Shown: one piece after another, positions 6,058 to 51,614 of the stretch | Position numbering within the stretch: position 1 is the stretch's first letter | Layout: each line of letters opens with the position of its first letter | From: Botryllus schlosseri | Taxonomy: Eukaryota | Assembly: GCA_051294905.1 (NCBI GenBank) | Contig: CM119371.1 | Location: forward strand, 2,730,001 to 2,794,000 | Length of the DNA: 64,000 nucleotides | Direction: 5' to 3' | Position numbers and translations under genes: made by a program | Notes under the pieces: model-generated | The model's input: the letters and a program-made list of their open reading frames with translations, nothing else | Databases searched by the model: none | Told to the model about the DNA's origin: nothing

Positions 6058-6843
6058 ATGGATCCATACCTCAATGTTCCTGCTACCCTCCAGATGTTAG
6101 AGAGCCTAGCAGAAGAGAGAGTGCCAAGAATATTGGTCAAAGACAGAGCAAATCAATTGGAATATACCATGGAGGTTAGCGTATAGATAACTAACCTACG
6201 GATAGATGGGCAATACGAGAGTCACGGTCGAGTGCATAGCATGAAACGGGAGCGTAATTGCTAATCCCATAGATGACGACCCGAGCGCTCAAATTAAATA
6301 AAGTTGATCTTATTTGAAAGCTACAGTCGCGCTGATTCTGATAATATACATTAAATTTTCATGCAGGCAATGGAACCACCCCGAAATAGCCTTCAAAATA
6401 TGAAAATCGGCATTGTTCTAAAACAATTGCAACGGCGCAGCACAATGACCATTACAACGGTCCGTGCGTGGTTGCGATTGTTTAGAACAATGCCGATTTT
6501 CATATTTTGAAGGCTATTTCGGGGTGGTTCCATTGCCTTGATGAAAATTTAATGTATATTATCAGAATCAGCGCGACTGTAGCTTTCAAATAAGATCAAC
6601 TTTATTTAATTTGAGCGCTCGGGTCGTCATCTATGGGATTAGCAATTACGCTCCCGTTTCATGCTATGAAGCGACAACAAATCTGCCGTTGTCTCATCAC
6701 TCGACCGTGACTCTCGTGTTGCCCATCTATCCGTAGGTTAGTTATCTATAGTTAGCTACACCGATAACGTGACGGCACAACCGAGCACAACTTCAGCGCA
6801 GAGCAGACAGATTGTTCAAAATCACTTCTCTGGAATGTCTTGA
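6058..6843 (+). pseudogene. Remnant of Harbinger B transposase (N- and C-terminal ends only)
   Basis: MDPYL..EERVPRILVKDRANQLEY resembles a HARBI-type N-terminus. After the palindromic insert, SRQIVQNHFSGMS* resembles the C-terminus. No DDE core is visible. Confidence 0.55.
6182..6750. mobile_element. Fold-back (almost fully palindromic) MITE, possibly P-superfamily
   Basis: Arms of about 250 bp (6182-~6435 and ~6472-6750) are near-perfect reverse complements, apart from a ~29 bp extra segment near 6669-6697. Termini TATAGATAAC/GTTATCTATA. Flanks GTTAGCG and GTTAGCT (7 bp, 1 mismatch). Superfamily assignment is inference. Confidence 0.8.
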
Positions 6844-11000: not shown

Positions 11001-11840
11001 CCGTAATTTTCTATGTATAATGCGCAAAATTTTACCGATTTATTGCCCTAAAATAGGGGGTGCGTATTATACATGGGTACAGCAAGCCTTTAAAAAAAAT
11101 CCCCCGATCAAAAACTTGAAATCACACTTTTCTTCATGTTTGTTCGAATCGCGCATCGCCTCTAGCCATTGGTCCCCGTAATTCGTATTATAGAGTGTAA
11201 CGCGCTGCCAAATAGAGCGCGTTGTTGCCAATTAACGAAAAGCGTGTTTCTAATTAACGAGAGTCATCTGCAAAGCACGTGATCTCTTGCTGAGCTGGTT
11301 TGCAGTTTGTACGCGAGCGAAATCAGGTCGCTGATTGCTACAAGCGTGCGCGGCAATCCTTGTTGAATGTTGATTCATCGCGTGAGCGACAGGCCTTAAT
11401 AATCGCATACACAAGATGCCATGTGCGCAATATATAATCGCTTGCGTAATCATTCGCATCTCCAACAGGACTGGTGCGCCCGACATAACCGTTGGCCTGA
11501 GCAATCGCATCTGTAATTGTAATAGGCCTCGTGCGCAAGATAGATGTCGTGTGTTGCTAGCTTGAACTATCGCGTTGCCGACCTCACTGGATTTGGCTAC
11601 TATCTACTCTCACTTAGAGACAATGCCGTTAATTGTATTTTGATTAGCGATCATTATGTCATGATTGTTCGACAGTGACATCGCAAAACAGAACAACATC
11701 GTGTACTAAAACGCAACTAAACATGTACTGCAAATGCAGGGTGCGTACTATACATGGGTATAGGCTTTTTCCCAGATTATTCACGTCATTTTAAGGGTGC
11801 GTATTATACATGGGGGCGCACTATATTCGGAAAATTACGG
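11001..11840. mobile_element. Tc1/mariner-pogo type MITE
   Basis: TA|CCGTAATTTTC ... GAAAATTACGG|TA. Subterminal repeat GGGTGCGTA(T/C)TATACATGGG occurs three times (~11058, ~11739, ~11795). No ORF. Confidence 0.85.
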
Positions 11841-12301
11841 TAAGTGTTTTGAGATTATTTGCAGAAGGGACGAATGTAGTTTGACGGATTTCACAAAATA
11901 AAAAAATATTCGATATCTGTTTCATAATAGATTAGAGATACGTTTACACCAAGGAATTGTTATCCAGATTATCCGCATAATCCATGTTATCAATGTAGTG
12001 TTGGTTATAGGCGAGTCATTTTTTAGTCCTCGCCATCGCGGGTGAAATCGTTATGGTGATTTAGGTGTAGCATCCTTATCACGGTGTCACATTAAAAGAA
12101 TTACAAAAATGCACCTATTATTGGCGTAACTGCTCATATTATGACAATAGTACACGATGTGGGCTGTTCAATTTAAAATCTGCAAACAATGATTTACTTG
12201 TTAAATTAGGTACAGCCATCCTATGTCACCCTTTTAAACAACTTATTTTGATGACATTTTTTCCAGAATTCAGTTTTGCATCTTGGCGTGGGAAGTCGCT
12301 A

Positions 12302-12839
12302 CGATTTATTATTATTTATTATTATTTATTGAAAAGTATTATATTACTTTGGTTAGCTGTACTTCTACTCCCAGGGAAACTAATACAGTATCTCTGCAGT
12401 AGTCTTTCAGCATGATATAAAGACACCACTAATAACTGTCAGGAAGACAAACAATTCGATGCCATTTTCACCAGAACCTATTTGAACAATTCATTTTGGA
12501 ACACATAGTGACCAGAAATTCCAAACAGACTCGTAAAATATTGGCATTCAGTGCCAACTGGGTGCTTCAATACCAGATTTCAGTTTAGAAAATATCAAGG
12601 ATGATAAGAAAGTAGTATAATTAATATAATAATAAATAATAATAATAATAGTATAATATAGTATAATTATATTAAGTTATAATATATATAACATGTGTCT
12701 CGTTGTCTCACTGGTCGGCAGTCCGCGAGTCTTGTGTGAGCTACTGGATTTTTAGATCAAAAATCTAGAACCAGGACTACCCACTTTTTAATCCCTGCAA
12801 CTAGAACTAAAACTAGGCCTACTATAAAAAGCCTGCAGT
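12302..12839 (+). repeat. Circularly permuted duplicate (B-A) of 31515-32067 (A-B)
   Basis: 12302-12402 matches 31967-32067 and 12401-12839 matches 31515-31953. Only one substitution seen (TCTAGAACC vs TCTATAACC). Confidence 0.95.
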
Positions 12840-13510
12840 TAGTATACGGTCAACAATCTACATTGGTAGTAGAAATCTAATGTACGCGCTTCTTGTTTGG
12901 TGTAGACTGATGCCTATTGTTATGACTAACATGGTGAGCAATGTGCGTGACGCAGTCCTTTAACTTTGATGCGAAAAATAAGTGTCCGCAAGTTTGAACA
13001 TGCAACTGGAAAACTGTACGGTATGTTACTACGTGATCCAAGTAGTCAATGAAGAAACTCAAATTGAGGTGGAAGATAGCCGTAACTTTGTACTCGATTT
13101 CAAATAGATTTTCAATGAAGGGTCTGAAAAATAAACGAGTAAGTAGTCCGAAAATGTCAATTTGTTGGGCGTGTTACATGCTTTTAGCAAGTAATCGAAG
13201 TTTGATATTTCCGGAATCGCATGTGCATCTACGTGAGTGACGTAGCATGACAAATGACGCAACATTAGGCTTATGTACAATTTTCAGAAATATATTTTAT
13301 GTTTGTGATGCAGGAATATTTCGCCCACGTGTCATGCAAATGTAGTTCGAAAAATCACGCATGCTCATCCCCAAACTACTTCCACTTGACAAATCATCAT
13401 GGTTGAGAAGTAAGTAGGCTGGTTTTACATGAAACTGTGAAGTACAAGTAGAAGCAGTCTAAAATCATAACAAAATGTGTTGGTAGTGTAACTAGACAAG
13501 CCTACCAGTA

Positions 13511-14473
13511 GGGGAGATGTGGTACCGATGGATCAAAAATTGGAAAATGATCGCTGGCCCCAAAATGTTCAGCCGAAAACAGCAGGTCTTTTGCTGGCTC
13601 AGCACTTTGATATAAGCTCTACCTATCTCGCACCTATACATGAATATCCGTCTTTTCAAAAAATATTTATGGACGTTCAAAATTTGTTGCTCGAACGTGT
13701 CATCGGTTCCCACCCGGTGGGTCCAATGGCACACGACCCGGGGACCTATGACACATATACCCCAAATACCTCAGATGTGACAACTTTTCTTGCTCAGTAT
13801 TATAATCTAAGCTACAGTAAGCCAAAGAAGAATGTTTGATCGCAACCGTCAAGAAATAGAATAAATATTAACTCAAATGTTGTCATAAAATCACGTTTCG
13901 ATTTAGGCTCGAACTTATAAATTTGAGGGTACATACATATTGCCCGAAAATCGACAGTGTGACTTCCAAACACCTCGTTACAGCGATAAAACATCATATG
14001 CAATTATTACATAAAGATTTTCTGTACGTAGGCATGTTTCATTTGTTTTATGATTAGTATGCTTGATTATTTTGCTTGATTTGGCTATTGTATCATCGGT
14101 CCCCACCCTACGAATTTTATACATGAATCGAAAAAAATTCCACTCAAGAAAAGTACTGAAAAAATTAATAGGTGCCATTATATAGCCTGATACAAGCCCT
14201 GCACTTCACAATAAAAATGATTGCTGGTTTGTTCGCGTTGAAGGTTACAAAGAAAAATGTATATGTCGATATAAATTTACTTTACACCCCCCAAAACAAA
14301 AAACATCTGTGAGAGACCCCATAGCTCGCGCACGTCGATTTTTTTTTGTATGTGAGGAAAGATTTTGCCAGCAAGCAATTGTAGACAAGTTCACGGAGTG
14401 TAATCATGGAATTATCATAGAGGATTTTCAAAGTATTTTCGGTCCCAGTGATCCATCGGTACCACATCTCCCC
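13511..14473. mobile_element. TA-flanked MITE (Tc1/mariner-pogo like)
   Basis: Perfect 25 bp TIR GGGGAGATGTGGTACCGATGGATCA, with TA on both sides. Confidence 0.85.
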
Positions 14474-14493
14474 TACTTGAGCATTACCAAAAT

Positions 14494-15921
14494 CAGGGTT
14501 GTAATGACTCGAGTCATGGCTCGACTCGAGTCGCGATTTTCTGATGACTCAACTTGACTCGAGTCATTATCTCAAAGTACGGAAATGGCTCGACTCGAGT
14601 CAATCTGTGTAATGACTCAAGTCAAAGCCATATGACTTGAGACTCAGGCGGCCAAGGCGGACATTTCATTGTAATTTCGAAAAATAGTCAAGTAGCCACA
14701 CCATTTGCATTTCATCTATTGGTAGCCGTACTTGAAAATGAAACCATAAACTGTTACAAGTTAAAAATATATTAGTATATTATAAATGGAACCATTCGAT
14801 ATGACTAGGGCAATTTTTTTTGACCTAAAAAACGGAAGATTTTGACCTAAAAAATCTAAATTTTGACTTTTTTTGACCTAAAAAAACTGAAATTTGACCA
14901 AATTTTGACCTCACGTATGCAAATTAGGTGTTTTCGCATATAATGTTAAAATTGTACTACTTATCTTCATTTCTGGTTGGAACTGTCTGTCCTTACAAAG
15001 TAGATTGGCCTGAAAAAACGTTTTTGGCTCAAAATCTGACAGATTTTTACATGAAAAAACTAGTATTTCAACGAATTCTGGCCCTATGAGACCTGGCAAT
15101 CTGGCCCATTACGTATTCTGGTGGAAATAATTAAAATTTGTTGTAGTACAACGAAAGATCCTTTCCTACATTCTCGGGTAGAAAGTGTCTGTCCTTACTA
15201 CATAGCTTGCCAAGAACGGAGAAAGAACGCTCAACAGCAGCATTTGTTGGCTGACAACACTCAAGTTGTGTGCACACTGCTGGTGACAAACCGTGTTGCT
15301 TCATTCTGACAATGTTGTCTATGTCACAATTTTTCAGCTTGCGCTTCTTGATATAAGAACCATGCAATGTCCAGGCAGTCTTGCTTCAGCTAGGATATTG
15401 CGGTACGTTGACCATAAAACCATGTCACTATTTGTTTCATTTGACCATTTATGATTCACAATGAGCAGACGATGGTCCATTTACAACGGTAGGCCTATAG
15501 AGTAGGCTACAAGCTGTAAAATATCAAATGATAAGTTCACCGACAGCGCAAAATCTACGATACAAACGAAATGCAGAGGTCAAAAACTGTTTGACTTCGT
15601 AAACAATTTTGACAAATTTTGACCTAACGCTACAATTTTGACCTAATTTTGACTTTTTTTGACATGTCAAAAAAAAATTGCCCTAGATATCACCAAACAG
15701 TTATAAAAATCGAATTATACAATACTTTAACAGAAAACTGATCAGGTGACGCTATGACTTGGACTCGATCTCGAGTCATAATACCAAGACTCAGACTCGA
15801 TTCTCTGCTTGCTGACATGGACTCGGACTTGAGTCGGTGGTGAATTCAAAATGACTCGACTTGCCTCGAGTCAGAACTATAAAAGTGAGATTGACCTGGA
15901 ACCTTGTGACTTGGTTACAAC
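14494..15921 (+). mobile_element. GACTCGAGTC-rich hAT MITE family copy, split by a nested hAT element
   Basis: Begins CAGGGTTGTAATGACTCGAGTC and ends TTGGTTACAAC. Becomes collinear with the intact copy at 33461-34028 once 14806-15685 is removed. Confidence 0.8.
14806..15685 (-). mobile_element. Non-autonomous hAT element with a transposase C-terminal dimerisation-domain remnant
   Basis: TIR TAGGGCAATTTTTTTT. 8 bp TSD GATATGAC/GATATCAC. Subterminal TTTGACC repeats. Minus-strand ORF 15131-15367 contains PTNAAVERSFSVLG..KDR, the hAT dimerisation motif. Confidence 0.87.
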
Positions 15922-16084
15922 CAATGTTCCCTCTAAGCTGCGCACGTGCGCAAATGCGCAGTGCTGAAGCTGTCTCTGCGCACAGAAAATCCGTAGTGAT
16001 GTTTTTTTTTTTTAAGTCGTTGCGCACTGTTGTCCAAGGGACCACGCAGGCGCGCAAACTCATGAAAAATTAGAGGGAACATTG
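15922..16084. mobile_element. Short hAT-like MITE
   Basis: 15 bp TIR CAATGTTCCCTCTAA and internal TGCGCA repeats. No TSD seen. Confidence 0.7.
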
Positions 16085-16395
16085 CCAGGGGCAAATAGTG
16101 TTATCGCTGAAGTCTGACACCGGGGTACTAGTGCGGCCCGCAAAGGTATATTGCGCTCCGTGAAGAAATGAGACTTCGCAATCACGTGCGCCTAACGATA
16201 AATCTTTTCTTTTAGTATGGTCTCGTACGCGTGAGCGATACTGATATCATTTCAATAGCGCATTATTTCCTGGGAATGGCGAAATAACATGGTTTAACAA
16301 AGTTATAAATAACAATGGGCTAGCTTGAAGTTAATCTGCGAGAAACTAGCGCATAGTCTTCTCCGCGTGGCATGAATATTGCGTAAGATTTCCTC

Positions 16396-16740
16396 AGGAC
16401 CGTAACTGCCGAACCCCAAACCCCCAATTAGGGGGCCGAGCTCGAAGGGCGCCCAAAATTGTTTCGTGAATTAACATAAATCATGGTGTATTTTTGGGGA
16501 ATTTTTCAAAATATTTTTCGCGCGGCGCGCGAATTAATTTTCTCAATTATCTTGATTATTGGGTACCCTTCCACATCAAAAAATACGCGTCATTAAGATA
16601 AATGGGCACTTGGGCGTCGGCCATTAACTTGCCACGACGCACCAAGACATATGAAGTTATAGGCTATGTGACATGCGACTCCGAGAAGTGCGCCAAAACG
16701 ATCAGCTGGATGGAAACGTATTGCTGTTTGAAGTCTAATT
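16396..16740 (+). mobile_element. Left-end fragment of the hAT-like element found complete at 56202-57508
   Basis: ACCGTAACTGCCG(A/C)ACCCCAAACCCCCAATT..GGGGGCCGAGCTCGAAGGG and GCCACGACGCACCAAGA are shared with 56206-56530. Confidence 0.75.
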
Positions 16741-16879
16741 CTTCTTTAGGAGACATGCAGTAACACGAGTGGTCTCCCACCATCGGCCGAACTTCCAATG
16801 GTTTCTTTTTCTCGTCTTCATTCCTTCTGTGTACCTTAGATAGCGGAAACGAATTGGTATGAAGCATTACCTAACTACT

Positions 16880-18590
16880 TATCCATGAGATATAAGTTAG
16901 GCTTACGCCAATGCTTGACTAGTACTATAAACTTGTAGAGTATATTCGAATTCAATTCTGAAGGCTAGATCCAAAAAGAGATTTGGTTAAGGTTATCACC
17001 TAGCACCAATGACCATTGACCAATCTTTGACCTTGATGTTATTATATCACTTTACTACTGCGACAACGCACACTGTAAGCGGTCAATATATTTGTTATAG
17101 AATAATGGACGTTCAGTAAAACGCAAAATGATTGAATGAATGATTTGTCGCTCTCACCAGTCACAACAGCGTATCGAGAACAATCCGAACAATTGTAACG
17201 TATACAGCGATTTTTAGCAACATCCATTTCCTGATGACTTGAAATTGACTCGTAAATTTTGCTTCCAGTCAGTGGTTAGTCGACATTTGTGAAACGCCGA
17301 GTCAAGTCAAGTCATTTTTGCAAAGTGACTCGAGTCAAATCAAGTCATACGAAAAAAGGTGACTCGAGTCTGACTCGACTCAAGACATAACCCGAGTCAT
17401 TTCAGCACTGTCCGCCAGACCACTACGACAGGCTGTGCTTTCACAAGCACGCTTGCATATCAGAGGTGGAAACTTGCCGCTAGTGATAGCTTTGCCTCAA
17501 TATTTAATGATTGGCATCTCAGTATCAGTTTGGCCAACTGACAAATATGATAAGGTGAAAGCAATTATAAGCTAGCTTCAGACACAAAGCAATCTGGCTG
17601 AACATCGTCCATTGAACCCCAGTAGGCTACCGCACGCCTACTTACTGTAACTAAACTGAACATAGAAGAAGAACATGAAACTATTAGTAGATTTTCACTG
17701 TTGAATTGAAACAGTGATAGATATGTTGAGTCATGGCGAGGCCAGGAAAAGTTAAGGCGACCCCGCTTGTGATCATGAACCAGAGGTTGCCGACCACTGC
17801 TCTATATCCGTCATCCAAACATGAAAATGAATTCAAAATTCTTTGTGGCAAGTGTGTGGAAGTCGAAGGCAAATATCAAAAACTTGAATTTAATGAGAAA
17901 CGTATTTCTTCCTTTTTGGTATCAAGTGTGCTGTACGTATGGTCATCAGATCTCAGATGCAAGTACATTATTTTTCTCCACATATTCATATATTTCAATA
18001 GGTTGCTATCAGATTTTTGACATTTTCTATTCAGATCGCCATCAATTCCATCATTGGCATGTCCAAGGGATGTGGTCTCGTCCAATTCAAGACCTCACTT
18101 CCGGCAAAGTGGCAAATTGTATCGACTCGCTGAATGGTAGGGAAAACGTTGGTAGACTCGTTCATGCTTACCGTACTTTTAAACCACTATTCAGGTGCTG
18201 TACCCAGACTTCAACAAACTACTGGATTTCCAAAATCTGAACTCTCTTTGCAAAACCCGTAACTTCAATTAGATTTAGAACAGCGGTTCTCAGAATTTTC
18301 TTTGACACGCCCCCATTTTGATAGTGAAAAATTTCGCGCTCCCATCATCGTCATGTCACAAATGCAATCAGAATGCTGGCAGTCCCAACGGAGGGTTTGA
18401 TGACATGGATGGTTTTGACTAGGGTGATTCTTTTACCTAAAAAACCAAAGATTGTGACCTAAAAAATCCTAATTTTGAAGAAATTTGACCTATCATATGC
18501 AAACTAGGTGTTTTCCCACATAACGTTAGAATGGCACTACTTATCTTCATTTCTGTTTGGAACTGTCTGTCCTTACGAAGTAGTTTTTCC
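16880..18590 (+). repeat. Composite repeat unit; inverted copy at ~38890-40975, partial copies at ~42545-43225 and ~46020-46160
   Basis: Collinear similarity across several embedded MITE fragments and unique-looking sequence, for example GGCATCTCAGTATCAGT and TGTATCGACTC(G/A)CTGAATGGTA. Confidence 0.85.
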
Positions 18591-19353
18591 TAGTTGAAAT
18601 GGGTAGGCTGTAAACTCCTAACAGCCTGGCCACGCCAGTCTCTGCAGTGATGACTCTGAGGTAGAAATGGCTGCAAGAACATCACACAATAAAACGCCGG
18701 GATCACGATTCACGTCAAACGATGACGTAAGTTTTCTAGTTGTTTGCAATTACTCAGTTGTTAGTTGACCGTCAACTAACTAGATTGGTAGCTTGCACAA
18801 GTCTGCATACCAGTCAATCATATTAAACTCCGTGAAGCCTGAAATAGTAGGTGAAAGAATACGCTCTTAATGTGATTTAGAACATGTTGGCCACCCGAAT
18901 AGATTTTGCGATACTGCCACTCATGATTGAAACATGATGTTTTGTGAGAGTTGATGACCACAGACAATCTCCTTGTAGTATTCATTGGTAGGGTTGTGGA
19001 AATCGTGCCTGAGTGACGCGACCATGAATCGAATAGTAGGCGTCGAGTCAAGTACCACTACTTATGACATCATAGGGTTATGAGAAATTTGAAAAGTGCA
19101 AATATGTACCGTTCATGCAACCACAAATAATATAATGCTGGCTCTACGTCATATTAAAAATAATATAGTTTTTATCAACGATGCCTATTTTATTGCAAAT
19201 GCTGCGGATTTACAGATATTTCCTTTCCGCTAGCGTAGTTTTGTACAACAGCTTTCGTATGCTGTTATATGACCAAGAAAGTTCCAAGGCTTCCACAGTG
19301 GAAATACGATCGGAACGATAAGTTTAGTTAATAAATGAACACATATTGGTGAG

Positions 19354-19845
19354 TAGGGCTGGTCACGATGATAAGAATACTCGAATCTGCTTCGATAAAT
19401 ATATCTAATGATTCGAGTCGAGTAGTGAAATTTTTGGAGTGCTGATATACGCTCTTTGCCAACGAAATGTAATTGAATATCGAGAATTATAGCTTCGACG
19501 GAATTTTCTACTGTGGGAGCATGGAAAACTCGACTGACCGTGGCCTACGGAACATGTAGTGCAAACCTACGAATGTTATTGGGTTTGCCATATCTCTGAA
19601 GTCATGATCAACCCCAGCATTGTCACAGAGTGCAATGAGATCGGTATTGCGGATAAAATATCAAAGTACAGACATGATATTCTTTGTAGTAGCGTAAAAA
19701 GTAGGCTATATATATATATGAACTTTGACATCTCAAATACTGTTATTTCGTCATAATGAGTGATACTCAAATACTCCACCGGGCTCGAAACCTAATATGT
19801 GATTCAATATCGAATCACTCACGTACTCGATTCTGCACAACCCTA
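19354..19845. mobile_element. hAT MITE of the TAGGGCTG / TACTCGA family (copy 1)
   Basis: TAGGG(C/T)TG termini and degenerate 8 bp TSD TTGGTGAG/TTGGCAAG. Opposite orientation to the homologs at 45202 and 62242. Confidence 0.75.
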
Positions 19846-21100
19846 TTGGCAAGGAGACGAATTATTTCTATTGCTGAATCAAATGGGTAGGGTTAATACT
19901 GATTTCAGATGCGAGCCCTCTGGACATTGTGCCTAGCTCAATAAGTAGTGCTATTTCAGAAAATATATCTAGTTACCGTGATACGAGGGGCGTACTATTT
20001 TGCTGTGAAATTAAACCGATTTTTACCTTTTAGCGAAACTTTCGAATTCAAAGAAGTGCGCTAAGCGAAATTTCTCACGAAGCCGAAGCCACAAACAAAA
20101 GCTTAACTCGTTGAATGATGCCAACACAAAACCGAACCCAAACCGACAAAGTTTCAAGAGAAAGTCATCAGGAGATTCAGTCGCTCACAGGAAAAGAGAG
20201 AGAGAACGGTACAAATCTCTGGATTGCAGAACAGAAAAAAAAATTCGATCAACATATTGCTCAGATGCGACTATACTTGCGTTTCAAGGCAACGTTGGTA
20301 CGAAAGCCTGCGGTAAAAATATATCCGTTGCCGAATTATGTGAAACCGAATATCCGTTCGGGAGACAAGGTCAAGATTAGGGTACGAGTGGGACGCACCC
20401 CAAAACTCAACTGCGAGTCCGATCAACGGCAAGTCACACAAAACTATTGAGAGCAAAAAGCAAGCAAAAATAGGCAGCCTTCGAAGAGAGGCCAGAAAAC
20501 CAGAGGAAGATGCTACTGGCAGGGTCAGAGTGTTTGGCGGTCTCGTTTTTAAATATGGCCGCTCCTTGCCAGTAGTAAGTTGGACTTTAAAAAACGTAAA
20601 CGAGGAAATTGGTTCCAAGTGCCATTGGTTTTCTAGTTGGTATTTTTTGTGTCAAAACTCTAGCAGCCAAGACGGTATTTCATCCCAACTTCGAAAAATA
20701 GTGAAGTTCCAAATTATAAGTATTTCATTTATCAGTACTCATACATAAAATTAGTGCCAAAACTTGTTATAACTGATGAAAATCAGCATATTATGAATAC
20801 CAGGCATTCGATATCGCCCAAGCATAATTGTGAAAAATTGGCTTCAACATAGGCTACCTGAACTCGAAACTGAACTATGAACACAATGAACACAACCCCC
20901 CGCAACACCACTGGGAGTTGGACTTGACACGGTGAATAAGTGAAGATTACTCGACTTACTTGGGTCAAAACTATAAAAGTAAGATCGACTAGAGACCCGG
21001 AACCTAGTGACTTGGTGTGAATAATTTGAACGCCGCAATAGGACATTGTTTGGTAATTTTGTTGCTGCGAAACCAAGTCGATTTTTACAAATGTTAGGGT

Positions 21101-21370
21101 TTGTTTGTTAGTTTGTAGTATTCATGGTGTTTGTCGACTACTGTGGTCATTTATACCAGGCCGATATTCGTCATTATTATTCCGTAACTGCCGACTTATA
21201 GCACGGCCCACTTCTGGGCTTTTTGTAAGACACCGCTTACGCGGATGAGGTGGCGAGGAGGAGTCTTGATCAACCTCCAACACTTAGGTATGGGAATTCT
21301 GAAGTCGGACTCGAACCCACAACCCATTGGTTTTGCAGCCGCGGCTTATACCACTGCGCTATCTCACCAC
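21101..21370 (-). mobile_element. tRNA-derived SINE (Cys-like head)
   Basis: Minus strand shows A box TAGCGCAGTGG, anticodon-like loop CTGCAAA, B box GGTTCGAGTCC, a non-tRNA body and an (AAAC)-type tail. 13 bp TSD CAAATGTTAGGGT at 21088-21100 and 21371-21383. Confidence 0.85.
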
Positions 21371-22800
21371 CAAATGTTAGGGTAATTCTGGGTGACTTGC
21401 AGTGCCCAGACCAGATTGCAATTTTATTTTCGAAATCAGCGAGGCGGTAGCTTTTTTAGAGGCCACTTTAAATAATTTTGTCACTCGAGTCTCAAGCGAA
21501 AAGATAACCATATCCCAGGGTTGTGAAACCACGTCACAAGGTCCCGAGTCATAAGTCAACTCTACTTTATTACATTTTGACTCTGGTCAAGTTGAGACAT
21601 TTTCAATTCAGCGCCGACTCAAGTCCGAGTCATAGTCAGGGTTCAAAGGTCTCAGTCCATAGACACAGTGTTGATACTCGGGTCTGAGTCCAAGTCGTTG
21701 TGTTACCTGGTCATTTTCGAGCTCAATCCTGTTCAAATCACTCTGTTTGGATGATTTTTAATGCCTCGCGTTATGTGGTAACTTACTATTCTTCGAAGTT
21801 GTCTTGCCCGATATCTAGAACTTCAAGTTTCTAGATATCCCTGGTGCGCAGGGACTCGAGTCAAGTCGAGTCAATACACAAATGCTCTCATATCGACTTT
21901 AGTAATTTTCCATACCGGTATTTTAGAAAATGACATTAGTCAAGTCTAGTGACTAAAAAATCTTGACTCGAATCGTTTCATTACAACGCTGTCATATCTT
22001 GCTAACCACGTTTTGCTTCATATCTAACTAATTGTGCAGTCACAAGATTCGGATCTATCTCTAATTAAGTTGTGTTATATACCTACACAGCCTCCTGTCT
22101 CCATATGTTTCAATAAACTCAGTTTGCAGGTTCACCGATGCATTTTGGTCTTGTTGTAGGAAAGGTAACTGAAAGTAAAACAGCTTCAATCGATATCGAA
22201 GTAACCTCGGTGGATAATTTACTCTTTCAAAACAAGAAAAGTGGGTAGATAAAGGAATGCAGATGAATACGCATTACACATGATGTTGTAAGCCTTTGGC
22301 AACTTTACAAATGTGTTCTGCTAGTTCAATCTGTTCTGCAGTAACAATAACACTGCATCCTACAGTCCACGTAACAGTAAAAACATGATGAAATTTGCCA
22401 ACCTAAATACTTTTTTTTTCAAAACGACTTGGATTTCGTTCGTTGATATTAAACCGCATAATGGTGGACTGCGTTGTTGCACGGCAGATCCCGCATCAGG
22501 ACTACGAACGAGGCTCTGGCTTTGACGTAATAAGCTAAAATGAAAGAAATCCACGAATTCTTTTTGTGGTGAGTGGGTAATACGACATAAATGGATCAAC
22601 AAGTTTTAATTCTTGTCCATTTCATAGTATACTCTAGCGCACGCTCAATATTCAGCTTGAGACGAGATCAAGATTTCGTTATGCTATACCTCTCATGAAT
22701 TCGGAGAGATCGATAATTCTAACAATGCGACTACAATTTCGTGCTTGTCGACACATTTCAGTAATACGGTAATACCAATGGTCGTAACGACTGACCTCAC

Positions 22801-22976
22801 TGTTACGTGGGTTATTGTATGTATTATAATGATGCTTCCCTGTAAAGTAGCAAGGTTTGACGTCATGCCTTACCCAACTGTGCATGACCGCATCACTCGT
22901 GCTTGACCGCTTCATCTCTTATCTCATCTCTGGTTGATGGCACATGGAAGCCATAATAAATGTACAGCAAGAAACA
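22801..22976 (+). repeat. 5' LTR (176 bp)
   Basis: One mismatch to the 3' LTR (CCCTGTAAAG vs CCCCGTAAAG). Contains AATAAA near its end. Confidence 0.97.
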
Positions 22977-22988
22977 TGGTGTCAGAAG
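22977..22988 (+). promoter_or_regulatory. Primer-binding site, tRNA-Leu
   Basis: TGGTGTCAGAAG directly after the LTR, complementary to the 3' end CTTCTGACACCA of metazoan tRNA-Leu(CAA). Confidence 0.85.
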
Positions 22989-23057
22989 ATAACTGAACTC
23001 GCGAGCTCTAAATCTGTCATTAGCTCGGCATAAAGATTTATCATCTTATCTAACTAT

Positions 23058-26000
23058 ATGGATCTAAGACATGTGATACCCCATCTGGGTCCTTTAACTG
23101 TCTCTGGTGATTTGGCCACCAACTGGAGGAACTGGAAGCGCCATTATGAGAATTATGAAGTGGCTACAAAACTCAATAAAGAGGAACATACCATTCGTAT
23201 TGCGGCTCTCAGAGCGGCTCTTGGACCAGCTGGGTGTGATGTCTATGATGGCATTACTTTATCAGAAGATGACGCCAAGAGTTACCCAGTCGTATTGAAG
23301 AAAATGGAGGAGCGCTGTGTTGGGAAGATCAACATTATATACGAGAGGTACTGTTTTTTCAGTCGCAGTCAAGCTTCAAATGAATCATTCAACACATACT
23401 ACGAACAGCTGCGAAGGCTGATAAAAACCTGTGATTTTAAAACCTTGGAGGATGAGCTTCTCAGAGACAAAATTGTGTGTGGCATATCCGATGTTGTGCT
23501 GAGAAGAAAACTCCTACAAGAGACAGGACTTACATGGGACTCCTGTATTTCGAGCTGCAGATTGTTTGAGTCAACTGCTCTGCAAATGGAAAAAATGACT
23601 CTAACGTCAGATGACGTTGCAATTCATGCGATACAAAATAAGTACAAGCAAAGGAAATGGCCAGCTGCTGAAAGGGACTCTAAAATGAATCGAGGATATG
23701 ATGGTAGTACACCTCAATCGGAAGAGCTCCCCAAAATCTGCAAGTTTTGTAGAAAAGTGCATGTTTTTGGTCGGCGATATTGCCCGGCTAACGGCAAAAC
23801 TTGTTCACGCTGTAACGGAAAAGACCATTTTGCCGTGGCATGTCAGGCAACTGTGATGATGATATCAGCTGATCGCATTGAGTCGGATGAAGAAGAGGAT
23901 GACGAAGTTCTTTCGTTTGAACATGTGAGTGCTACGGAGGAATCCTATGTTAAGAAAATATTTGCTCTGTTATACCTGGTTAACATGTATGTAAAATTCC
24001 AAATTGATTGTGGCGCAACCGTAAATGTTCTTTCATGGCGAGATTACTTGAATGTAACTGGTGACACAAAAATGCTCAACTTGAAACCTACTTCTATGAG
24101 ACTGGTTGTATATAATAAGGAAGTGATAAGGCCTCTAGGAATAACAACGTTGGAAATCACCAATAAAAAGAATGGTGAAAACTACTTGCTAGAATTTGTA
24201 GTGGTTGAGAAGCCGAACACTTCCATCATTGGTTCCGCCGATGCTCAAAGGATGAAACTAATTACGATCAATTTTGAAAACATGATGATCGAGGAACCTT
24301 CAGTACAAGCTCTTACAGCGAAGGATCCTGAATTCGCCAATTTTGCTACACTGGAGTTTGATCAAATATGTGAACAATTTTCGGATGTTTTCAATGGTAC
24401 GGGAAAGCTAGAGGGTAAACTTCATCTGGAAATTGATGACACTATCAATCCTGTACAGATGCCTGTTCGCAAAATACCCCTGGCACTTGAAGCACAAGTG
24501 AGGGAGAAAATTGATAGTTTGGTTGATGCTGACATAATAGCTCCCGTGGATTGCCATACTCCCTGGATATCTAATCTGGTCACTGTAAAAAAGCAATCTG
24601 GAGATATCCGCTTGTGCCTGGATCCCCTGGCGCTGAACAAAGCCCTAAAACGCAACAACTATCCAATGCCGACAGTTGATGATGTGTTACCATATATGCA
24701 CAATGCCAAAGTATTTACACTGTGTGATGTAAAAAATGGATTTTGGCATGTAGAACTTGATGATACTAGTAGTTATCTAACTACATTCGTTACTCCATAT
24801 GGTCGTTACAGATGGCTCCGACTGCCTTTCGGAATCAGCCCAGCACCGGAGGAGTTCATGAGAAGACTGAAGATAGCGCTGGACGGCCTGGAAGGAATCA
24901 CGCCCGTCGCGGATGACATCTTGATTTATGGTGTGGGCGACACTGTTGAAGAGGCGACTATGGACAATAAGAAAAAGTTCTTTGAACTGTTGAAACGCTG
25001 TGAACAAACTGGTATTAAACTGAATAAAGCGAAACTACGCTATCTGCAGACTGAAGTGCCCTACTTAGGCCATACCATCTCAAAAGATGGTCTAAAACCC
25101 TCATCGAGCAAAATTGAAGGCATCATAAAAATGCCCCCTCCAACGGATAAGCAGGGCGTCCAGAGAATTTTAGCGATGACAAATTTTCTGCAGCGTTTTG
25201 CCCCTAAGCTTTCAGAGATAACCGCTCCCATCCGCGAACTCCTAAAAAAAGACAACGCGTTCATATGGGATCCAATCCTCCATGGGTCATGCTTTGAGAA
25301 AATAAAACAAACCTTGATCAACGCGCCAGTTTTACAATACTTCGACAAAAACGCACCTATGGTACTGCAATGTGATGCCAGTTCAAAGGGGCTAGGATGC
25401 TGTGTATTGCAAAACTCTCACCCTGTTGCCTATGCTTCACGGGCGTTGACAACAACGGAGTGCAACTACGCGCAAATCGAAAAAGAATTGCTTGCTATTC
25501 TCTTTGCCATGGAAAAATTTGAGTTATATGTCTATGGCAGATTTGTAACAGTAGAAAGCGATCACAAACCTCTGGAAGTGATCACAAAGAAAAGCCTGGT
25601 TAATGCACCAAAACGGTTACAGCGCATGTTACTTCAGCTCCAAAAGTATGACTTCGAGGTGATATACAAGCCTGGATCACAATTATTTGTGGCGGATACG
25701 TTGAGTCGTGCGTACATTCCGAAGTCACCCAAAGACGGAGAAACTGCTGATGTGTTTGATATATTTCAACAGATTGAACATATCGACATGTTGAATGATA
25801 TACCGGTATCAAGCTCCACGCTCGGCATGGTCAGCCAAGCAACAATCTCTGATTCTGTCATGAACACGTTAATCTCTTTTATAAAACATGGGTGGCCGAA
25901 TGAAGCCAAGCTGGTACCCCAATCAATTCGAAATTTCTACTGTTTTAAAGAGGAGTTGATATTTCAGGATGAAATCGTTCTGAAGGGTGATCGTATTGTC

Positions 26001-27089
26001 ATACCGTCGTCCATAAAAGGCACTATTCTCAAGCGACTACATGCCAGTCATGTTGGAATTCAAGGTTGTGTACGCCGGGCTCGTGAATGTTTGTATTGGC
26101 CCAACATGGTTAACGATATTACGGACTTCGTATCAAGCTGTCGCACATGTGGCTTACACCAACCCAACCAACAGAAGGAAAGTATGATTTCACATCCGGT
26201 ACCAGGACGTCCTTGGCAAATAATCAGTAGCGATTTATGTGAATTTGACGGACAACATTATTTGATTACAGTTGATCACTACTCGGATTATTTTAAGGTA
26301 GATCGACTAACCTCACAGACTTCTACGGCAGTTATTCGCCGCTTAAAATCACATATGGCACGTCATGGAATTTGCGAGAAATTGATTACTGACAATGGTC
26401 CATGCTATGCTGCTCATGACTTCGAGGCATTTGCAAAGGAATATGAGTTTGAACATGTGACCAGCTCTCCAGGACACAGCCAATCGAATGGAAAGGCGGA
26501 ATCAGCTGTCAAAATCTTCAAATCGTTACTTCGTAAAGCGACAACTGACAAAAAAGACATAAATATTGTACTGTTGGATTGGAGAAACACTCCAGGCGAG
26601 ACTGTTCCTGGCTCTCCAGCACAGAGGCTATTTGGAAGACGCACCAAGACCTTGTTGCCAATAGCAACTAAACTGCTTGAGCCGAAAATTGTTTCTGATG
26701 TCATTCCATCGCTTATGGATCGGAAAAGAAAACAGGCAAAGTATTACAATCGTGGTGCAAAAGACCTCGCCCTGTTGAGTCCTGGTCAACAGGTTCGATT
26801 CAAAAGGACAGAAAATGGCTTGTGGCTCGAAGCGGTGGTGATTAAGCAACTGAATGATCGATCGTACATTGTTAAGGCGACAGACGGAACGATCTACCGA
26901 CGCAACAGAAAGTTTATTCGAACTACTGTAACTCGCCCGCATGTTGCATTTGACTTTGACGACATTTCGATTGCCAGACCAGCAGTAGTGAACAGCGACA
27001 CTAATGGGTCGTTATCTGGTTGCAGTAGCAGCAGGCCAAGCCGTACAGTAATTCGACCAGCATACTTGCAAGACTATGTTACAACTTGA
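23058..27089 (+). CDS. Gag-Pol polyprotein, 1343 aa (gag with zinc knuckles, protease, RT, RNase H, integrase)
   Basis: CKFC..H..C and CSRCNGKDHFAVAC knuckles. FQIDCGA protease. NGFWHV, LPFGISPAPE and ADDILIYG in RT. CDAS and YAQIEKE in RNase H. HASH..CRTC, ITDNG and SNGKAES in integrase. Gypsy domain order. Confidence 0.97.
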   Translation: MDLRHVIPHLGPLTVSGDLATNWRNWKRHYENYEVATKLNKEEHTIRIAALRAALGPAGCDVYDGITLSEDDAKSYPVVLKKMEERCVGKINIIYERYCFFSRSQASNESFNTYYEQLRRLIKTCDFKTLEDELLRDKIVCGISDVVLRRKLLQETGLTWDSCISSCRLFESTALQMEKMTLTSDDVAIHAIQNKYKQRKWPAAERDSKMNRGYDGSTPQSEELPKICKFCRKVHVFGRRYCPANGKTCSRCNGKDHFAVACQATVMMISADRIESDEEEDDEVLSFEHVSATEESYVKKIFALLYLVNMYVKFQIDCGATVNVLSWRDYLNVTGDTKMLNLKPTSMRLVVYNKEVIRPLGITTLEITNKKNGENYLLEFVVVEKPNTSIIGSADAQRMKLITINFENMMIEEPSVQALTAKDPEFANFATLEFDQICEQFSDVFNGTGKLEGKLHLEIDDTINPVQMPVRKIPLALEAQVREKIDSLVDADIIAPVDCHTPWISNLVTVKKQSGDIRLCLDPLALNKALKRNNYPMPTVDDVLPYMHNAKVFTLCDVKNGFWHVELDDTSSYLTTFVTPYGRYRWLRLPFGISPAPEEFMRRLKIALDGLEGITPVADDILIYGVGDTVEEATMDNKKKFFELLKRCEQTGIKLNKAKLRYLQTEVPYLGHTISKDGLKPSSSKIEGIIKMPPPTDKQGVQRILAMTNFLQRFAPKLSEITAPIRELLKKDNAFIWDPILHGSCFEKIKQTLINAPVLQYFDKNAPMVLQCDASSKGLGCCVLQNSHPVAYASRALTTTECNYAQIEKELLAILFAMEKFELYVYGRFVTVESDHKPLEVITKKSLVNAPKRLQRMLLQLQKYDFEVIYKPGSQLFVADTLSRAYIPKSPKDGETADVFDIFQQIEHIDMLNDIPVSSSTLGMVSQATISDSVMNTLISFIKHGWPNEAKLVPQSIRNFYCFKEELIFQDEIVLKGDRIVIPSSIKGTILKRLHASHVGIQGCVRRARECLYWPNMVNDITDFVSSCRTCGLHQPNQQKESMISHPVPGRPWQIISSDLCEFDGQHYLITVDHYSDYFKVDRLTSQTSTAVIRRLKSHMARHGICEKLITDNGPCYAAHDFEAFAKEYEFEHVTSSPGHSQSNGKAESAVKIFKSLLRKATTDKKDINIVLLDWRNTPGETVPGSPAQRLFGRRTKTLLPIATKLLEPKIVSDVIPSLMDRKRKQAKYYNRGAKDLALLSPGQQVRFKRTENGLWLEAVVIKQLNDRSYIVKATDGTIYRRNRKFIRTTVTRPHVAFDFDDISIARPAVVNSDTNGSLSGCSSSRPSRTVIRPAYLQDYVTT

Positions 27090-27162
27090 TTCGTTGCCGT
27101 AATTTATATCCTAATTCGGTTCGCTTTGTTTTCTATTATTTTGTGATGTTTTGAGAAGGGGA

Positions 27163-27338
27163 TGTTACGTGGGTTATTGTATGTATTATAATGATGCTTC
27201 CCCGTAAAGTAGCAAGGTTTGACGTCATGCCTTACCCAACTGTGCATGACCGCATCACTCGTGCTTGACCGCTTCATCTCTTATCTCATCTCTGGTTGAT
27301 GGCACATGGAAGCCATAATAAATGTACAGCAAGAAACA
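27163..27338 (+). repeat. 3' LTR (176 bp)
   Basis: Direct repeat of 22801-22976, preceded by the polypurine tract. Confidence 0.97.
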
Positions 27339-28343
27339 CTCACCACCAGCGCCTTGATTCTCGAAGAACCCGTGTAGTGTCTCGTACTCGGACGTAGCAA
27401 GTAAATATAACTGGATTGTGACAGCTATCGAGTTTTAAAATTTTACAGAGATCGTAGCAACGTAACCAATACCTATTCAAATTCATGGGGCGTAAAATTA
27501 TTGTCAAAGGCCTTTTGTTACTTGGTCGACGCAATGTAAATACGAACAATACAGTGGTTAAGAACGCCGTTGAAGCATGTTGATTGTAGTAAGGTGGAAT
27601 TTACGGACTTAGCAATTCGCAGCAATTAAATGCCAGCTCGAAGGGGAATATAATAAGTGTCATGAAGGACTTGTATTTCGCAATTATTCTTCAGATCTCT
27701 AGGAGAAATTGTGATATTGACGACGTTTATATTCGGGCGCAGGTAACAGTTGTGCGGAATATAAGCAGAGATAGCCATTTATAACATATATTCTGATTAT
27801 ATGAAATTCGCATTTTTGATGCATTATCAATTTGCGGTAGTTTTGACGTAAGGTATATTTATGCGCCCGGCGTTATTGGCGTAATGTGCCGTGATATAAT
27901 GTTCTTAAAGCTGCCAGTGGTTGTACAAAACTGACACACCTTACGCGAAATTGGTCACCTATTAGTGAACGACAAACTGACACTTCATAGTTCAAATGCA
28001 GTAGCCTACAATGATCGCCGATGCAACTACATCTATGCGTACAAAATCGCAACTACCTACCATTACTCATTAGTTACATTTACTCCATCTTTAACACGGG
28101 TAACGGAAGCTTTGAAAAGGTTATACTGTTATGGGCATACCGTTTATCGCAATAATTTCAACCTGTGATGGTACGTTACGCACCTGTGCGAATGAACAAA
28201 TTTGCAGTGCCAATGACGAAGGTGGTGCGAACGTTGGGAAAGAAAATCCGTGTGAGTGCGCATGAAAATCGTAAATAATTGATAATTTTTCTCACGTATA
28301 ATAATTTAAATATACCTGATAAGAAATTCAAGTGCAGTGTCTC

Positions 28344-28709
28344 TAGGGTTGCATTTAAAACAGAAATCAATTTAAAACAAACATTTTTAAAACAAGGCCT
28401 TAATTTAAAACATGTTTTTTATTGTTATTTTTATGTTTTTTAAATGGTATGACGTCACGAGTATTCAGTTGTGACGTTATAGTGGATTGACATTGACAAT
28501 TGAAAATATAGGGTAAACATAGCTCCTTTGACGAAATATATGTAGGCTACTATTGCTCTTGAACGGACTATTTTGAAGGTTCCAACCGGCCCATATAGAT
28601 ATACGTCGGCTACAACGGGTGGTAACAGTCCGTAGGCTCATACAATATGTTTTAAAAAACTGTTTAAACAAAGTGTTTTAAAACACCGTTTGTTGTAAAT
28701 GCAACCCTA
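28344..28709. mobile_element. hAT MITE
   Basis: TIR TAGGGTTGCATTTA, perfect 8 bp TSD AGTGTCTC, and AAACA/TGTTT subterminal repeats. Confidence 0.88.
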
Positions 28710-29863
28710 AGTGTCTCCCTAACCTCGGCAGCTGCGAGGCAACCGTAGCTTTGACAAAAACATTGTCTCTCACAAGCCGTAGTGAATTAATATTTGTGCA
28801 CTATAATTATTACGTAACGAAAATCCTGGTTTGAAATCTGGTGTAGTGGCAGAAATACAGTGTATAAGCCTGTCTGAGTCGGCGACAGGCTGGAAAAAAT
28901 ACGTCAAATTGACATTCTGCCTTCTTTCGCTGAACGATCATCACACTTTCGTATTAACTGAAAAACATGGCCGAAGACCGTTGGGATGAACTAGTTTAGT
29001 GGTATGCAATTAGCGGATTCATGCCTATGAGACTCATTCATTTCGAGCCAACCCTTTCTCCGTCGGGGAACATGAAGACGCAAAGTTTTCGCCAACATAC
29101 CGCCTATAATCAGCGGTGCCAAAACATCAGGGGCGACAAAACCTTGGCCAAAAATTACCGTCGCTGGATGGCCAAAACTTTCGATATGAATATATGCTCA
29201 TGTGCAATGACTCAAAATGACTCGTGACTCGAAGGTAGTGACTTGATCCCAACACTGAATATCTCACTCTGTATTGTTCAGTTTGTTCACGAATGTTCAA
29301 TGCATGCCGTGAGATTTGCTTGTGTCCGGCCATATAGGACACTATGGTTTCATCTACAAACTAATATAGCTTAGTGATTCATACGTAATCAATATATATC
29401 AGTGGTCGGGAACCTTTTTTGTACGGAGAGCCATATTGACCCCATATTTTCCATTTTAACTTCCAAAGAGCCTTTCATTTTAATCAACTAATACGTCACA
29501 CTTGAAAAATCGTGACGTCATGGAAGCGCAAATTCGTCGAATTTCGTCAGTTATACGAGATCGTAAGTTCGTCTTGACGATATTCTTAAATGCGAGGACC
29601 CATATGGACATAAGTAGGCGGAGCCAAACATGATGGTCACTACACACTTTAATGTGTGATGCGTCAGTGACGTAGTTTCAGGGGAGGCACGTGAGGCACT
29701 GCCTTACCTGTCTACTAGATTTTGAACATTTTTACTACGAAAATCATGCAACTTTCCTATTTATTGTTCGAAAATATAGCGTGAAAGGGGAGGTAAGGCA
29801 TGGGTGAGGCACGGCCGGGATTAGGATATTTATAAATATCATAGAATTTATAAAAACTGATAA

Positions 29864-30238
29864 CACTGGTCAACACGTATTTTTAGGCATACAAAGTAAG
29901 AGTGGTTGTAATGGTTCTGAAGGGCATTGATTCCGAAAATGACCTCAGTTTTTTTTCAAATCGGCTCTTGTTTTGGAGATAACCCATGGGGACGACATGA
30001 GGGTTCTTCATATTCAATTATTATCTACTGAAATGCCGTATAAAATTAGAAAAAAAATACGATTTTTTTCTTGCCAAGTGAAATATTCAATGGTAAATGC
30101 AGTAATTCTCGACTTTTCATGGGTAGCCTACAAGAGCAAATCTCTAATCACTAATGTGATATTCGTAATCAGCAACCTCGAAACCCCAGAACCGGCTCTT
30201 AGATGTTCTGCCCATTTTTTTCGTTCTGCTGACCAGTG
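29864..30238. mobile_element. Chapaev3-like non-autonomous element
   Basis: TIR CACTGGTCA with TAA on both sides. CAC termini plus a 3 bp TWA TSD fit Chapaev3 (family assignment inferred). Confidence 0.65.
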
Positions 30239-30311
30239 TAATTGAATAATAACAATTGAATGTAATTGCCGCGCCGATTCCGATTCGACTCAATGGGAGA
30301 CATTCACAAAC

Positions 30312-30973: not shown

Positions 30974-31279
30974 TCACAAACCACTTGGGGCGCCAACACC
31001 TCGTCCTATCGTCCGTAGTAAACAAACAATACTATAGCTTTTCGCAAGAAACCATGTCAGCCACTGCCTGTTGGATTCGGGTAACAGAATTAATCTTGTA
31101 TGTACGGCGTTTAAACATATTTACGACTGATGATTAGGTTCAGTGCAATTTATGAATTGCCAGGTTACTTCGTGTACCTGTATTTCATTTCCAGAGAGTG
31201 ACGTTTGAATATTAGCTGAGTGACACATAGCCTATATTTCATTTTAATAGACTGTATTATCATCTATCTACATTATAAA

Positions 31280-51569: not shown

Positions 51570-51614
51570 TTCTTTGCTATCATCTACTGACAATCTTCTC
51601 ACATCACTGCCAAT

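Follow-up and report, generated by a model that had tools for sequence, protein, structure and literature searches.

Two stretches of DNA that match almost base for base, with their two blocks in opposite order, raise the question of how one was made from the other. Such a pair lies in the 64-kb stretch of Botryllus schlosseri DNA analysed here (64,000 nucleotides, hereafter the window), where one locus reads A-spacer-B and a second, 19 kb upstream of it, reads B-A. Swapped-order duplicates now serve as a sequence signature of the germline re-insertion of extrachromosomal circular DNA (eccDNA). In human, 82 of 327 source-resolved polymorphic insertions were called eccDNA-mediated by a block test, and as presented in that preprint 80 of these 82 AB-to-BA insertions are intrachromosomal, with 78 of the 80 within 10 Mb of the source and 79 of the 80 in the source orientation (bioRxiv 10.64898/2026.09.03.749254). 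AB-to-BA duplicates are thus already in print, and the present case is another example, in a repeat-rich non-mammal eukaryote. The locus is small and very young, both partners are held in one window, and every junction can be read.

Results

The copy compared with its source

In the source, segment A (31515-31953, + strand) is 439 bp long, contains an AT-rich low-complexity tract and ends in CTGCAGT. It is followed by a 13-bp spacer (31954-31966, + strand; CCTGCTGTCCTGT) that occurs in the source only, and then by segment B (31967-32067, + strand), which starts with an (ATTTATT)-type tract and closes with CTGCAGT plus AG; all three were read and compared directly. In the copy (12302-12839) both segments are on the same strand as in the source, the block order is swapped and the spacer is missing. 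Base-by-base comparison showed the 101-bp B of the copy (12302-12402, + strand) to be identical to 31967-32067 at 101/101 positions, and the 439-bp A that follows it (12401-12839, + strand) to agree with 31515-31953 at 438/439, the sole mismatch being a G at 12768 where the source has a T at 31882. B and A of the copy overlap by 2 bp, the AG at 12401-12402, which forms the last two bases of B and is common to A. Extension of the two matches gained no further base at any of the four ends. The insert aligns to the source over its whole length (538/538), and 540 of the 553 donor bases (97.6%) are represented in the copy, one turn of the source coming to 551 bp after the AG overlap. Self-BLAST of the 64-kb window returned the A match with an E value of 0.0 and the B match with 2e-48, and there was no third copy of A or B in the window.

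The copy starts with CGATTT and ends with GCAGT (on the other strand it starts with ACTGCA and ends with AAATCG). Its ends do not pair as a terminal inverted repeat, the matches in register being 11 of 40, which is the chance level, and poly-A is absent from both. A terminal-inverted-repeat element was rejected for this chance-level match, and a Helitron because the ends on neither strand have the form 5' TC and 3' CTRR. The permuted, near-identical, same-strand duplication described in the first-pass annotation is borne out by the direct comparison and by self-BLAST, the single substitution, shared AG and lost 13-bp spacer by the base-by-base comparison, and the absence of TIR, LTR and poly-A tail by the end match and the letters. 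The permuted duplication is confirmed as real and was described correctly in every checkable detail.

Read support and relatives

Thirteen public runs share words with 11500-13500, and four of them (X1, X8, X10 and X5) were aligned to 11800-13340. All four were used as Logan contigs, and the findings come from the rows listed, with 844 pieces, 90 loose ends and 45 differences lying outside these. Positions 12301-12332 and 12611-12674 were masked as repeats in the contig alignment, and the left outer junction falls inside the masked part. Reads at the junctions had been suggested as a check, and for the inner joint the B/A order is upheld by X1 record 5 (317 nt, depth 17, one other letter), which lies on 12340-12607 and spans the joint with 62 letters on one side and 205 on the other. 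Since this contig was built from reads without the assembly, the joint is not a chimera made by the assembler; X1 is possibly the assembly's own sample, in which case the contig does not count as independent support.

In X1, the stretch 12424-12527 is covered by one contig only among the rows listed, at depth 17 against about 12 on exact unique flanks (exact-match contigs on unique flanks have depths of 12.1, 12.3 and 29.3). Extra copies of the exact A/B sequence are therefore not numerous in that sample. There was no sign of a multi-copy B-A joint in the self-BLAST of the 64-kb window or in the rows listed for the aligned runs. Diverged relatives of the core of B (12320-12371) are numerous in the reads, with a summed depth of 2004 in X1 and 8564 in X8, and relatives of A differ from the two A copies at about six sites within 12521-12577 alone among the rows listed.

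Sequence features at the breakpoints

The CTGCAGT at the end of A (31947-31953, + strand) recurs at the end of B (32059-32065), and its counterparts in the copy are at 12394-12400 and 12833-12839. The heptamer occurs nine times on the + strand of the 64 kb, four of these being the ends of A and B in copy and source. At the frequency of the 7-mer in the window the coincidence amounts to roughly 3 in 10,000 per comparison, and it is unlikely that the same 7-mer stands at both segment ends by chance. At the donor the heptamer could be read as a 7-bp target duplication flanking an insert of 105 bp made up of the spacer and B1-92. This is attractive, yet it leaves the direction unsettled, since CTGCAGT also brackets A in the copy and so does not fix the direction of copying.

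B's outer breakpoint lies 4 nt outside a 20-nt arm (31971-31990, + strand) that forms a perfect inverted repeat with 31740-31759; in the copy the arms are 12306-12325 and 12626-12645. At A's left breakpoint, the best DNA fold of 31470-31560 was a hairpin of -8.4 kcal/mol (z -1.7), which 13 of 200 shuffles equalled or bettered and which is not significant.

A decayed THAP domain at the source

THAP domains are largely an animal feature, and the remnant of one (31280-31520, + strand), recognised from Pfam and the reading frames, crosses A's left boundary. The match is to PF05485 (E 2e-5, 25.7 bits against a cut-off of 23.9, profile positions 2-59 of 87, at 31280-31483), and its score exceeds the cut-off only when translation starts at the ATG of 31280 and the TAG that interrupts the frame at 31421-31423 is treated as X. 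Without read-through of the TAG the score is 15.6 bits with an E value of 0.029, which misses the 0.01 threshold. The closing AVPSVF motif is in another frame and straddles A's left boundary. The damage consists of one stop and one frameshift, the latter before AVPSVF, while the parts keep the right order and spacing; judged by these frames the domain at the source is dead. A search for longer-protein relatives of the fragment gave two candidates, none with E <= 0.001.

In two X8 contigs, the 30-nt flank before 12401 agrees with donor positions 31485-31514 at 28 of 30 letters. This indicates that diverged relatives of A elsewhere in the species also have the THAP-to-A order. On this reading of the flanks, it is at 31.5 kb that A's left edge stands in its older context. 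The direction from donor to copy that had been proposed from the AVPSVF motif therefore stands for A's left edge, where the PF05485 hit, the frames around AVPSVF and the X8 flank (28/30) agree, whereas the right edge differs from what had been assumed. An exact-pattern scan of metagenome contigs gave 0 hits for the THAP/A joint, and 0 hits for the joint of the A end with the right flank (pattern with two degenerate letters).

The flanks and outer junctions of the copy

The left flank of the copy, R1 (11844-12301, + strand), is a multi-copy repeat with depths of 135-331 at 90-99% identity and loose ends at 11842-11844. The left outer junction, R1/B, has 0 bp of microhomology with the source. 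The right flank, R2 (12840-13340, + strand), is a low- to multi-copy repeat which, from the contigs and depth bins, is contiguous with A-end-like sequence in diverged relatives. The first-pass annotation had envisaged a blunt capture into unique DNA, with an empty allele reading ...GTCGCTA joined to GTATACGG...; in that case the joint 12839/12840 would be expected only in this allele and would be near-identical everywhere. The contigs contradict this, as diverged contigs from three samples continue out of A's final 50 or so bases into the right flank. In X10, record 15 (168 nt, depth 3.1) aligns without a break to 12787-12954 and has nine other letters, and a second contig also starts at 12787; the two share C at 12848 and T at 12880 and disagree with each other at 12897 and 12924. 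In X8, T at 12836 is found in five contigs (338.6 of a summed 445) and C at 12848 in four (424.5/424.5), and since the distances to the contig end, 36 and 24, place one end at 12872, these contigs cover both sides of the junction. In X1, the variant form at 12848 makes up 32.9 of 44.9. Among the rows listed, the contigs that span the right junction number two in X10, four to five in X8 and probably three in X1.

Contiguity of the A end with the flank therefore exists apart from the copying event. Several copies or alleles, a few percent off the window, thus join A-end-like to R2-like sequence, and it is probable that the recipient already carried an older relative of A, so that the right junction lies in homology. 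By a partly inferred count, the X10 contigs differ from the window at about 10 positions in 151 nt of the A part and at about 5 in 240 nt of the flank, which would be expected if a native A relative had been overwritten by the donor version. The simplest reading of the THAP-to-A and A-to-R2 joints would be a repeat family with the order THAP-A-R2. The 12.3-kb member would then have had its left part replaced by B and R1, and the 31.5-kb member its right part replaced by the spacer and B.

No homology was found between the right flanks (12840-13240 against 32066-32466), the best local score of 28 comparing with a shuffle maximum of 29, nor between the left flanks of copy and source or between the left flank and the spacer. 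Two co-linear hits at offsets near 17.6 kb, which might have spoken for an old segmental duplication of both neighbourhoods, were taken as family noise; this reading was rejected since palindromic GACTCGAGTC-type repeats match many places on both strands. For the four runs, the joints listed are three, all in X8 and within 12942-13177, and none leads from 12301 to 12840, contigs being unable to show absence.

Coding and RNA content around the two loci

Pfam searches of 123 ORFs (8.8-22.9 kb and 27.3-36 kb) and of four large ORFs found nothing in or beside either locus, except for a nested Ty3/gypsy-type pol at 23034-27086. This element has LTRs of 176 nt with one difference between them (22801-22976 and 27163-27338). 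The duplicated locus contains no genes and has no apparent function. Across the whole window, Rfam scans at the gathering score were without a match (0), this being the level at which the copy itself was covered, and 30900-32400, scanned at E up to 5, gave five weak miRNA-like matches (E 0.17-4.7). A retrozyme or other hammerhead circular RNA element was set aside, as no hammerhead appeared in the Rfam scans.

Discussion

A proposed repair synthesis between the two loci

Our tentative first choice, held with something short of even confidence, is that a recent repair event put a 540-bp patch at 12302-12839, copied from 31515-32067 by synthesis with a template jump. The recipient would have carried an older diverged relative of A's right half joined to the present right flank, both loci being members of one THAP-A-R2 repeat family. 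A break at the recipient would have been repaired with the downstream relative as template, the broken end pairing with A through A-like homology. Synthesis, presumably leftward, would have passed through A as far as 31515, where the growing end may have detached and re-annealed at the AG just at the far edge of B (32066-32067). B would then have been copied leftward until the end detached at 31967, having passed the 20-nt inverted-repeat arm by 4 nt and lacking 13 nt for a complete turn, and the released end would have been joined to the left flank without homology. A hairpin formed by the nascent strand at the 20-nt arm could have dislodged the end at this outer breakpoint of B. In this account we infer the standing of the spanning contigs, as the pre-event state or sister copies, the direction of synthesis, the break itself and the reason for the stop.

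Weighing repair against a DNA circle and other routes

Repair synthesis with one jump and the re-insertion of a circle explain the locus about equally well, the former being slightly favoured. According to the latter, a 551/553-bp A-spacer-B circle was closed at the AG, opened again within or beside the 13-bp spacer, whose bases were lost, and captured 19 kb upstream, its left end being joined by end-joining and its right end either blunt or annealed to a resident A-like repeat; we consider this possible but doubtful. The near-closure of the copy is awkward for repair, being unexpected from two free jumps, as the second segment stops 13 nt from the start of the first. With end points placed randomly and independently within 1-5 kb, we computed that the gap would be no larger than 13 nt in 6% falling to 0.6% of permuted arrangements. 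With a circle the near-closure comes for free, and the same argument is put forward in bioRxiv 10.1101/2022.06.22.497135; the swapped order with 540/553 source bases (97.6%) is the natural product of one cut. The 2-bp microhomology at the inner joint and blunt outer joins also fit end-joining, and the absence of high copy number for exact A/B in X1 (depth 17 where exact unique flanks have about 12) speaks weakly against a large tandem source. The size of the copy, which we take to be within the range of small eccDNA or microDNA, counts for a circle as well. The same block pattern has been used to call eccDNA-mediated germline insertions in human, and reporter circles are described as integrating in the mouse germline (both in bioRxiv 10.64898/2026.09.03.749254); it has also been applied to larger duplications (PMC7188851, PMC7450558). 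Against this putative circle, a free circle would have no reason to land 19 kb away in the same orientation, although a single case carries little weight. An intact donor requires that the piece came from a sister copy or that the donor was restored, the right junction is not with unique DNA, and the position of both segment ends after CTGCAGT is not predicted by random breakage. Repair makes use of the pre-existing homology at the right junction seen in the X10, X8 and X1 contigs, and it predicts, by replacement of a native relative, that the A part of the X10 contigs is more diverged than the flank. It leaves the source intact, a direct interaction between the loci would suit both the common strand and the 19 kb that separate them in cis, and B's outer breakpoint lies 4 nt beyond the 20-nt inverted-repeat arm. 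The bias of the human AB-to-BA set towards cis and the same orientation also hints at a local process, which is our own reading and not that of its authors. Repair has costs of its own, however. Microhomology accompanies every switch in classic FoSTeS/MMBIR cases; here it is 2 bp (AG) at the B/A joint, 0 bp at the left outer junction and, at the right outer junction, probably part of longer homology. Donor identity reaches the last base of the shared homology (12839), which needs full heteroduplex correction or an exact end, the contigs at the right junction could be paralogues instead of this locus, and a patch-free allele is not among the joints listed, Logan contigs being unable to show its absence. 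A circular intermediate, as put forward in the first-pass annotation, fits the order and near-closure; for the common strand, the short distance in cis and the homology at the right edge, a direct repair interaction between the loci does at least as well, and which of the two operated cannot be told from the letters of this locus.

Three further routes were weighed. We regard it as improbable that 12401-31953 is one large unit with A as its terminal direct repeats (LTR-like or a tail-to-head partial tandem), the B copies being a target duplication of about 100 bp with 13 extra bases at the right end. THAP-to-A and A-end-to-R2 in diverged relatives would then be the two internal junctions of every member, and the same orientation, the 99.8% identity and the 2-bp microhomology at a 5'-truncated left end would be accounted for. 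Yet A has no TG start or CA end, its ends are not inverted repeats, a 4-6-bp target duplication is absent, and no convincing primer-binding site or polypurine tract abuts it. A was rejected as an LTR, as it reads AGTCTTT...CTGCAGT with flanks (GCAGT/AGTAG and CCTGC) that do not match each other. The 18.7 kb between the A copies show no coding capacity of their own (Pfam, 123 ORFs), since the sole RT/integrase ORF inside (23034-27086) belongs to the nested element with its own 176-nt LTRs. The interval is made up of old, mixed repeats sharing 65-84% identity with further copies elsewhere in the window, which is difficult to reconcile with a unit whose two ends are 0.2% apart; a target duplication of 101 bp would be unusual and the common CTGCAGT would be left unexplained. 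We give similarly little credence to an unseen source, which may be a transient or allelic tandem array (A-spacer-B-A-spacer-B), a third locus with the B-A joint, or an assembly error. Such an array is topologically a circle, so order and near-closure fit, but in X1 12424-12527 is covered by one contig at depth 17 against about 12, so that no extra identical units are apparent, and the A relatives in X8 have a THAP-type left flank instead of B. The assembly-error variant is met by the B/A joint in read contigs built without the assembly. Least probable, taken jointly over its two forms, is an RNA route with insertion of the cDNA. The template would have been either a circular RNA of A-spacer-B, reverse-transcribed about once around, or successive RNA pieces, the reverse transcriptase switching on reaching the 5' end of one to the 3' end of the following piece. 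Active-looking machinery is close by (a LINE with AP-endonuclease and RT at 51591-54794 and the Ty3/gypsy-type pol at 23034-27086), and the (ATTTATT)n tract of B, on the other strand, in our own reading resembles a retroposon tail exactly at the outer junction. By eye, no GT-AG was found on either strand at any of the three placements of the joint within the AG, and for want of a back-splice GT...AG at all three a circRNA-derived retrocopy was rejected. Poly-A is absent, there is no target duplication beyond a possible TA, and across the window neither a self-cleaving ribozyme nor any other Rfam family was matched at the gathering score.

Comparison with known swapped-order duplications

The human set is filtered for insertions with at least 95% of insert and source aligned, non-repetitive sequence, a unique source, no overlap with TEs or simple repeats, and polymorphism (bioRxiv 10.64898/2026.09.03.749254). 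The present pair has the AB-to-BA block order (B-A at 12302-12839 against A-spacer-B at 31515-32067) and coverage above 95% (insert 538/538, source 540/553 or 97.6%). It is repetitive, with diverged relatives in the reads, masked stretches at 12301-12332 and 12611-12674 and the THAP remnant, its source being unique within the window. Since the copy overlaps repeats it would be filtered out of the human set. As far as that preprint describes its insertions, they share with this copy the cyclic shift, at least 95% of the source kept, the same chromosome, proximity, the same orientation and a small size; the copy differs in consisting of transposon debris with low-complexity tracts, in having its right junction in a repeat and in coming from a non-mammal.

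Takahashi and Innan 2020 describe three human eccDNA-mediated duplications (PMC7188851). The swapped halves are explained there by circularisation, a cut and re-insertion, the donor sometimes being inferred from gene context as it was here; the duplications presented are of 20-130 kb and 95-97% identical, against 0.54 kb and 99.8% for the present copy. For large segmental duplications, Chicote et al. 2020 propose that the donor is circularised and interacts replicatively with the acceptor (PMC7450558). The A-B to B-A reversal and the microhomology or short indels at the breakpoints are alike, and the model as outlined there is close to the one that we favour, though those duplications are large and old, whereas here one junction appears to lie in real homology. 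Template switching by FoSTeS/MMBIR is discussed as an alternative to circle insertion in bioRxiv 10.1101/2022.06.22.497135. The likeness is in segments strung together at short microhomology, nearby templates and an intact donor, and the difference is in the left outer junction without microhomology and in the near-complete turn, which such switching does not predict. The colour-sidedness duplications at KIT in cattle reportedly arose by serial translocation through circular intermediates, a permuted duplicate having been read as proof of the circular shuttle. They reportedly span hundreds of kilobases, lie between chromosomes and have a phenotype, unlike the present copy.

What the locus means for the signature

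The locus illustrates how the swapped-order signature can mislead, since one apparent insertion junction lies inside a repeat that probably preceded the event. The geometry, in cis and on the same strand, is explained by a repair polymerase no less well than by a free circle. The pre-event state, if seen in long reads from the population, could help to decide between the two mechanisms. It is conceivable, though we hold it doubtful, that a microDNA-sized germline circle of 551-553 bp, derived from a dead THAP-transposon remnant and closed at the AG, opened again beside an AT-rich tract and re-entered the chromosome 19 kb upstream with its donor intact, a repeat already at the landing site possibly having directed it there through homology. 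Should that be true, the locus would offer a natural example, resolved to single bases, of a small eccDNA behaving as a mobile element in a non-mammal.

Mobile and repeated sequences around the two copies

Both copies of A, the 439-bp segment found at 31515-31953 (source) and 12401-12839 (copy), lie among repeats of several kinds. Between them is nested a Ty3/gypsy-type LTR retrotransposon (22801-27338), whose 176-nt LTRs differ from each other at one position and whose 1351-aa ORF (23034-27086) carries reverse transcriptase, RNase H and integrase domains; judged from its sequence, the element looks intact. A LINE-like ORF pair is found at 50490-54794, comprising an ORF1 of 359 aa with a coiled-coil and a match to the Baculovirus FP domain-2 (E 5e-11), and an ORF2 of 1068 aa with an AP-endonuclease and a reverse transcriptase.

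Just upstream of the decayed THAP zinc-finger domain that crosses the left boundary of source A lies a foldback-type element (30314-30971). Its inverted arms of 102 nt are 91% complementary and enclose a 23-nt unit (GGGATATTAGGGTTG...) repeated eight times in tandem. The inverted repeat at 6235-6422 and 6481-6668, with arms of 188 nt that are 99% complementary and 58 nt apart, is on its sequence a hairpin or foldback element of very recent origin. Clusters of MITE-like repeats that are palindromic and rich in GACTCGAGTC occur on both strands at 14.5-15.9 kb, 32.1-34.0 kb and 37.9-38.2 kb; the repeats resemble one another at 68-88%, and one cluster starts 38 bp past the end of B, the 101-bp source segment at 31967-32067. 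An inverted homology of ~3.5 kb (14815-18586 versus 38910-41017, 75-84% identity) probably reflects a transposon family of some age, of which 42.5-43.2 kb holds an additional incomplete copy.

To the left of the copy, an extremely abundant short repeat of GGGTGCGTA(C/T)TATACATGGG... units (11739-11843) ends at 11842/11843. In the bin 11800-11851, summed contig depth was 31,502 in X1 and 182,687 in X8, two of the public sequencing runs compared as Logan contigs with 11800-13340, and dozens of differing sequences follow on from the repeat.

Variants and fragments of A

A 42-nt piece of A (12729-12770) recurs on the minus strand at 47458-47499 with 93% identity; the repeat that contains it there, at 47.4-47.6 kb, is unrelated. 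Where contigs of X8 and X5 have loose ends at 12729 and 12770, these ends agree with the context of that repeat.

Within 12521-12577 (equivalent to 31635-31691), six letters common to both A copies are absent from all X8 contigs, and those at 12572 and 12577 also mismatch all contigs of X10 and X5. The window's form of A at 12521-12577 was found only in the depth-17 contig of X1, a run that may derive from the assembly's own sample. A single lineage may be the only one to carry this form of A.
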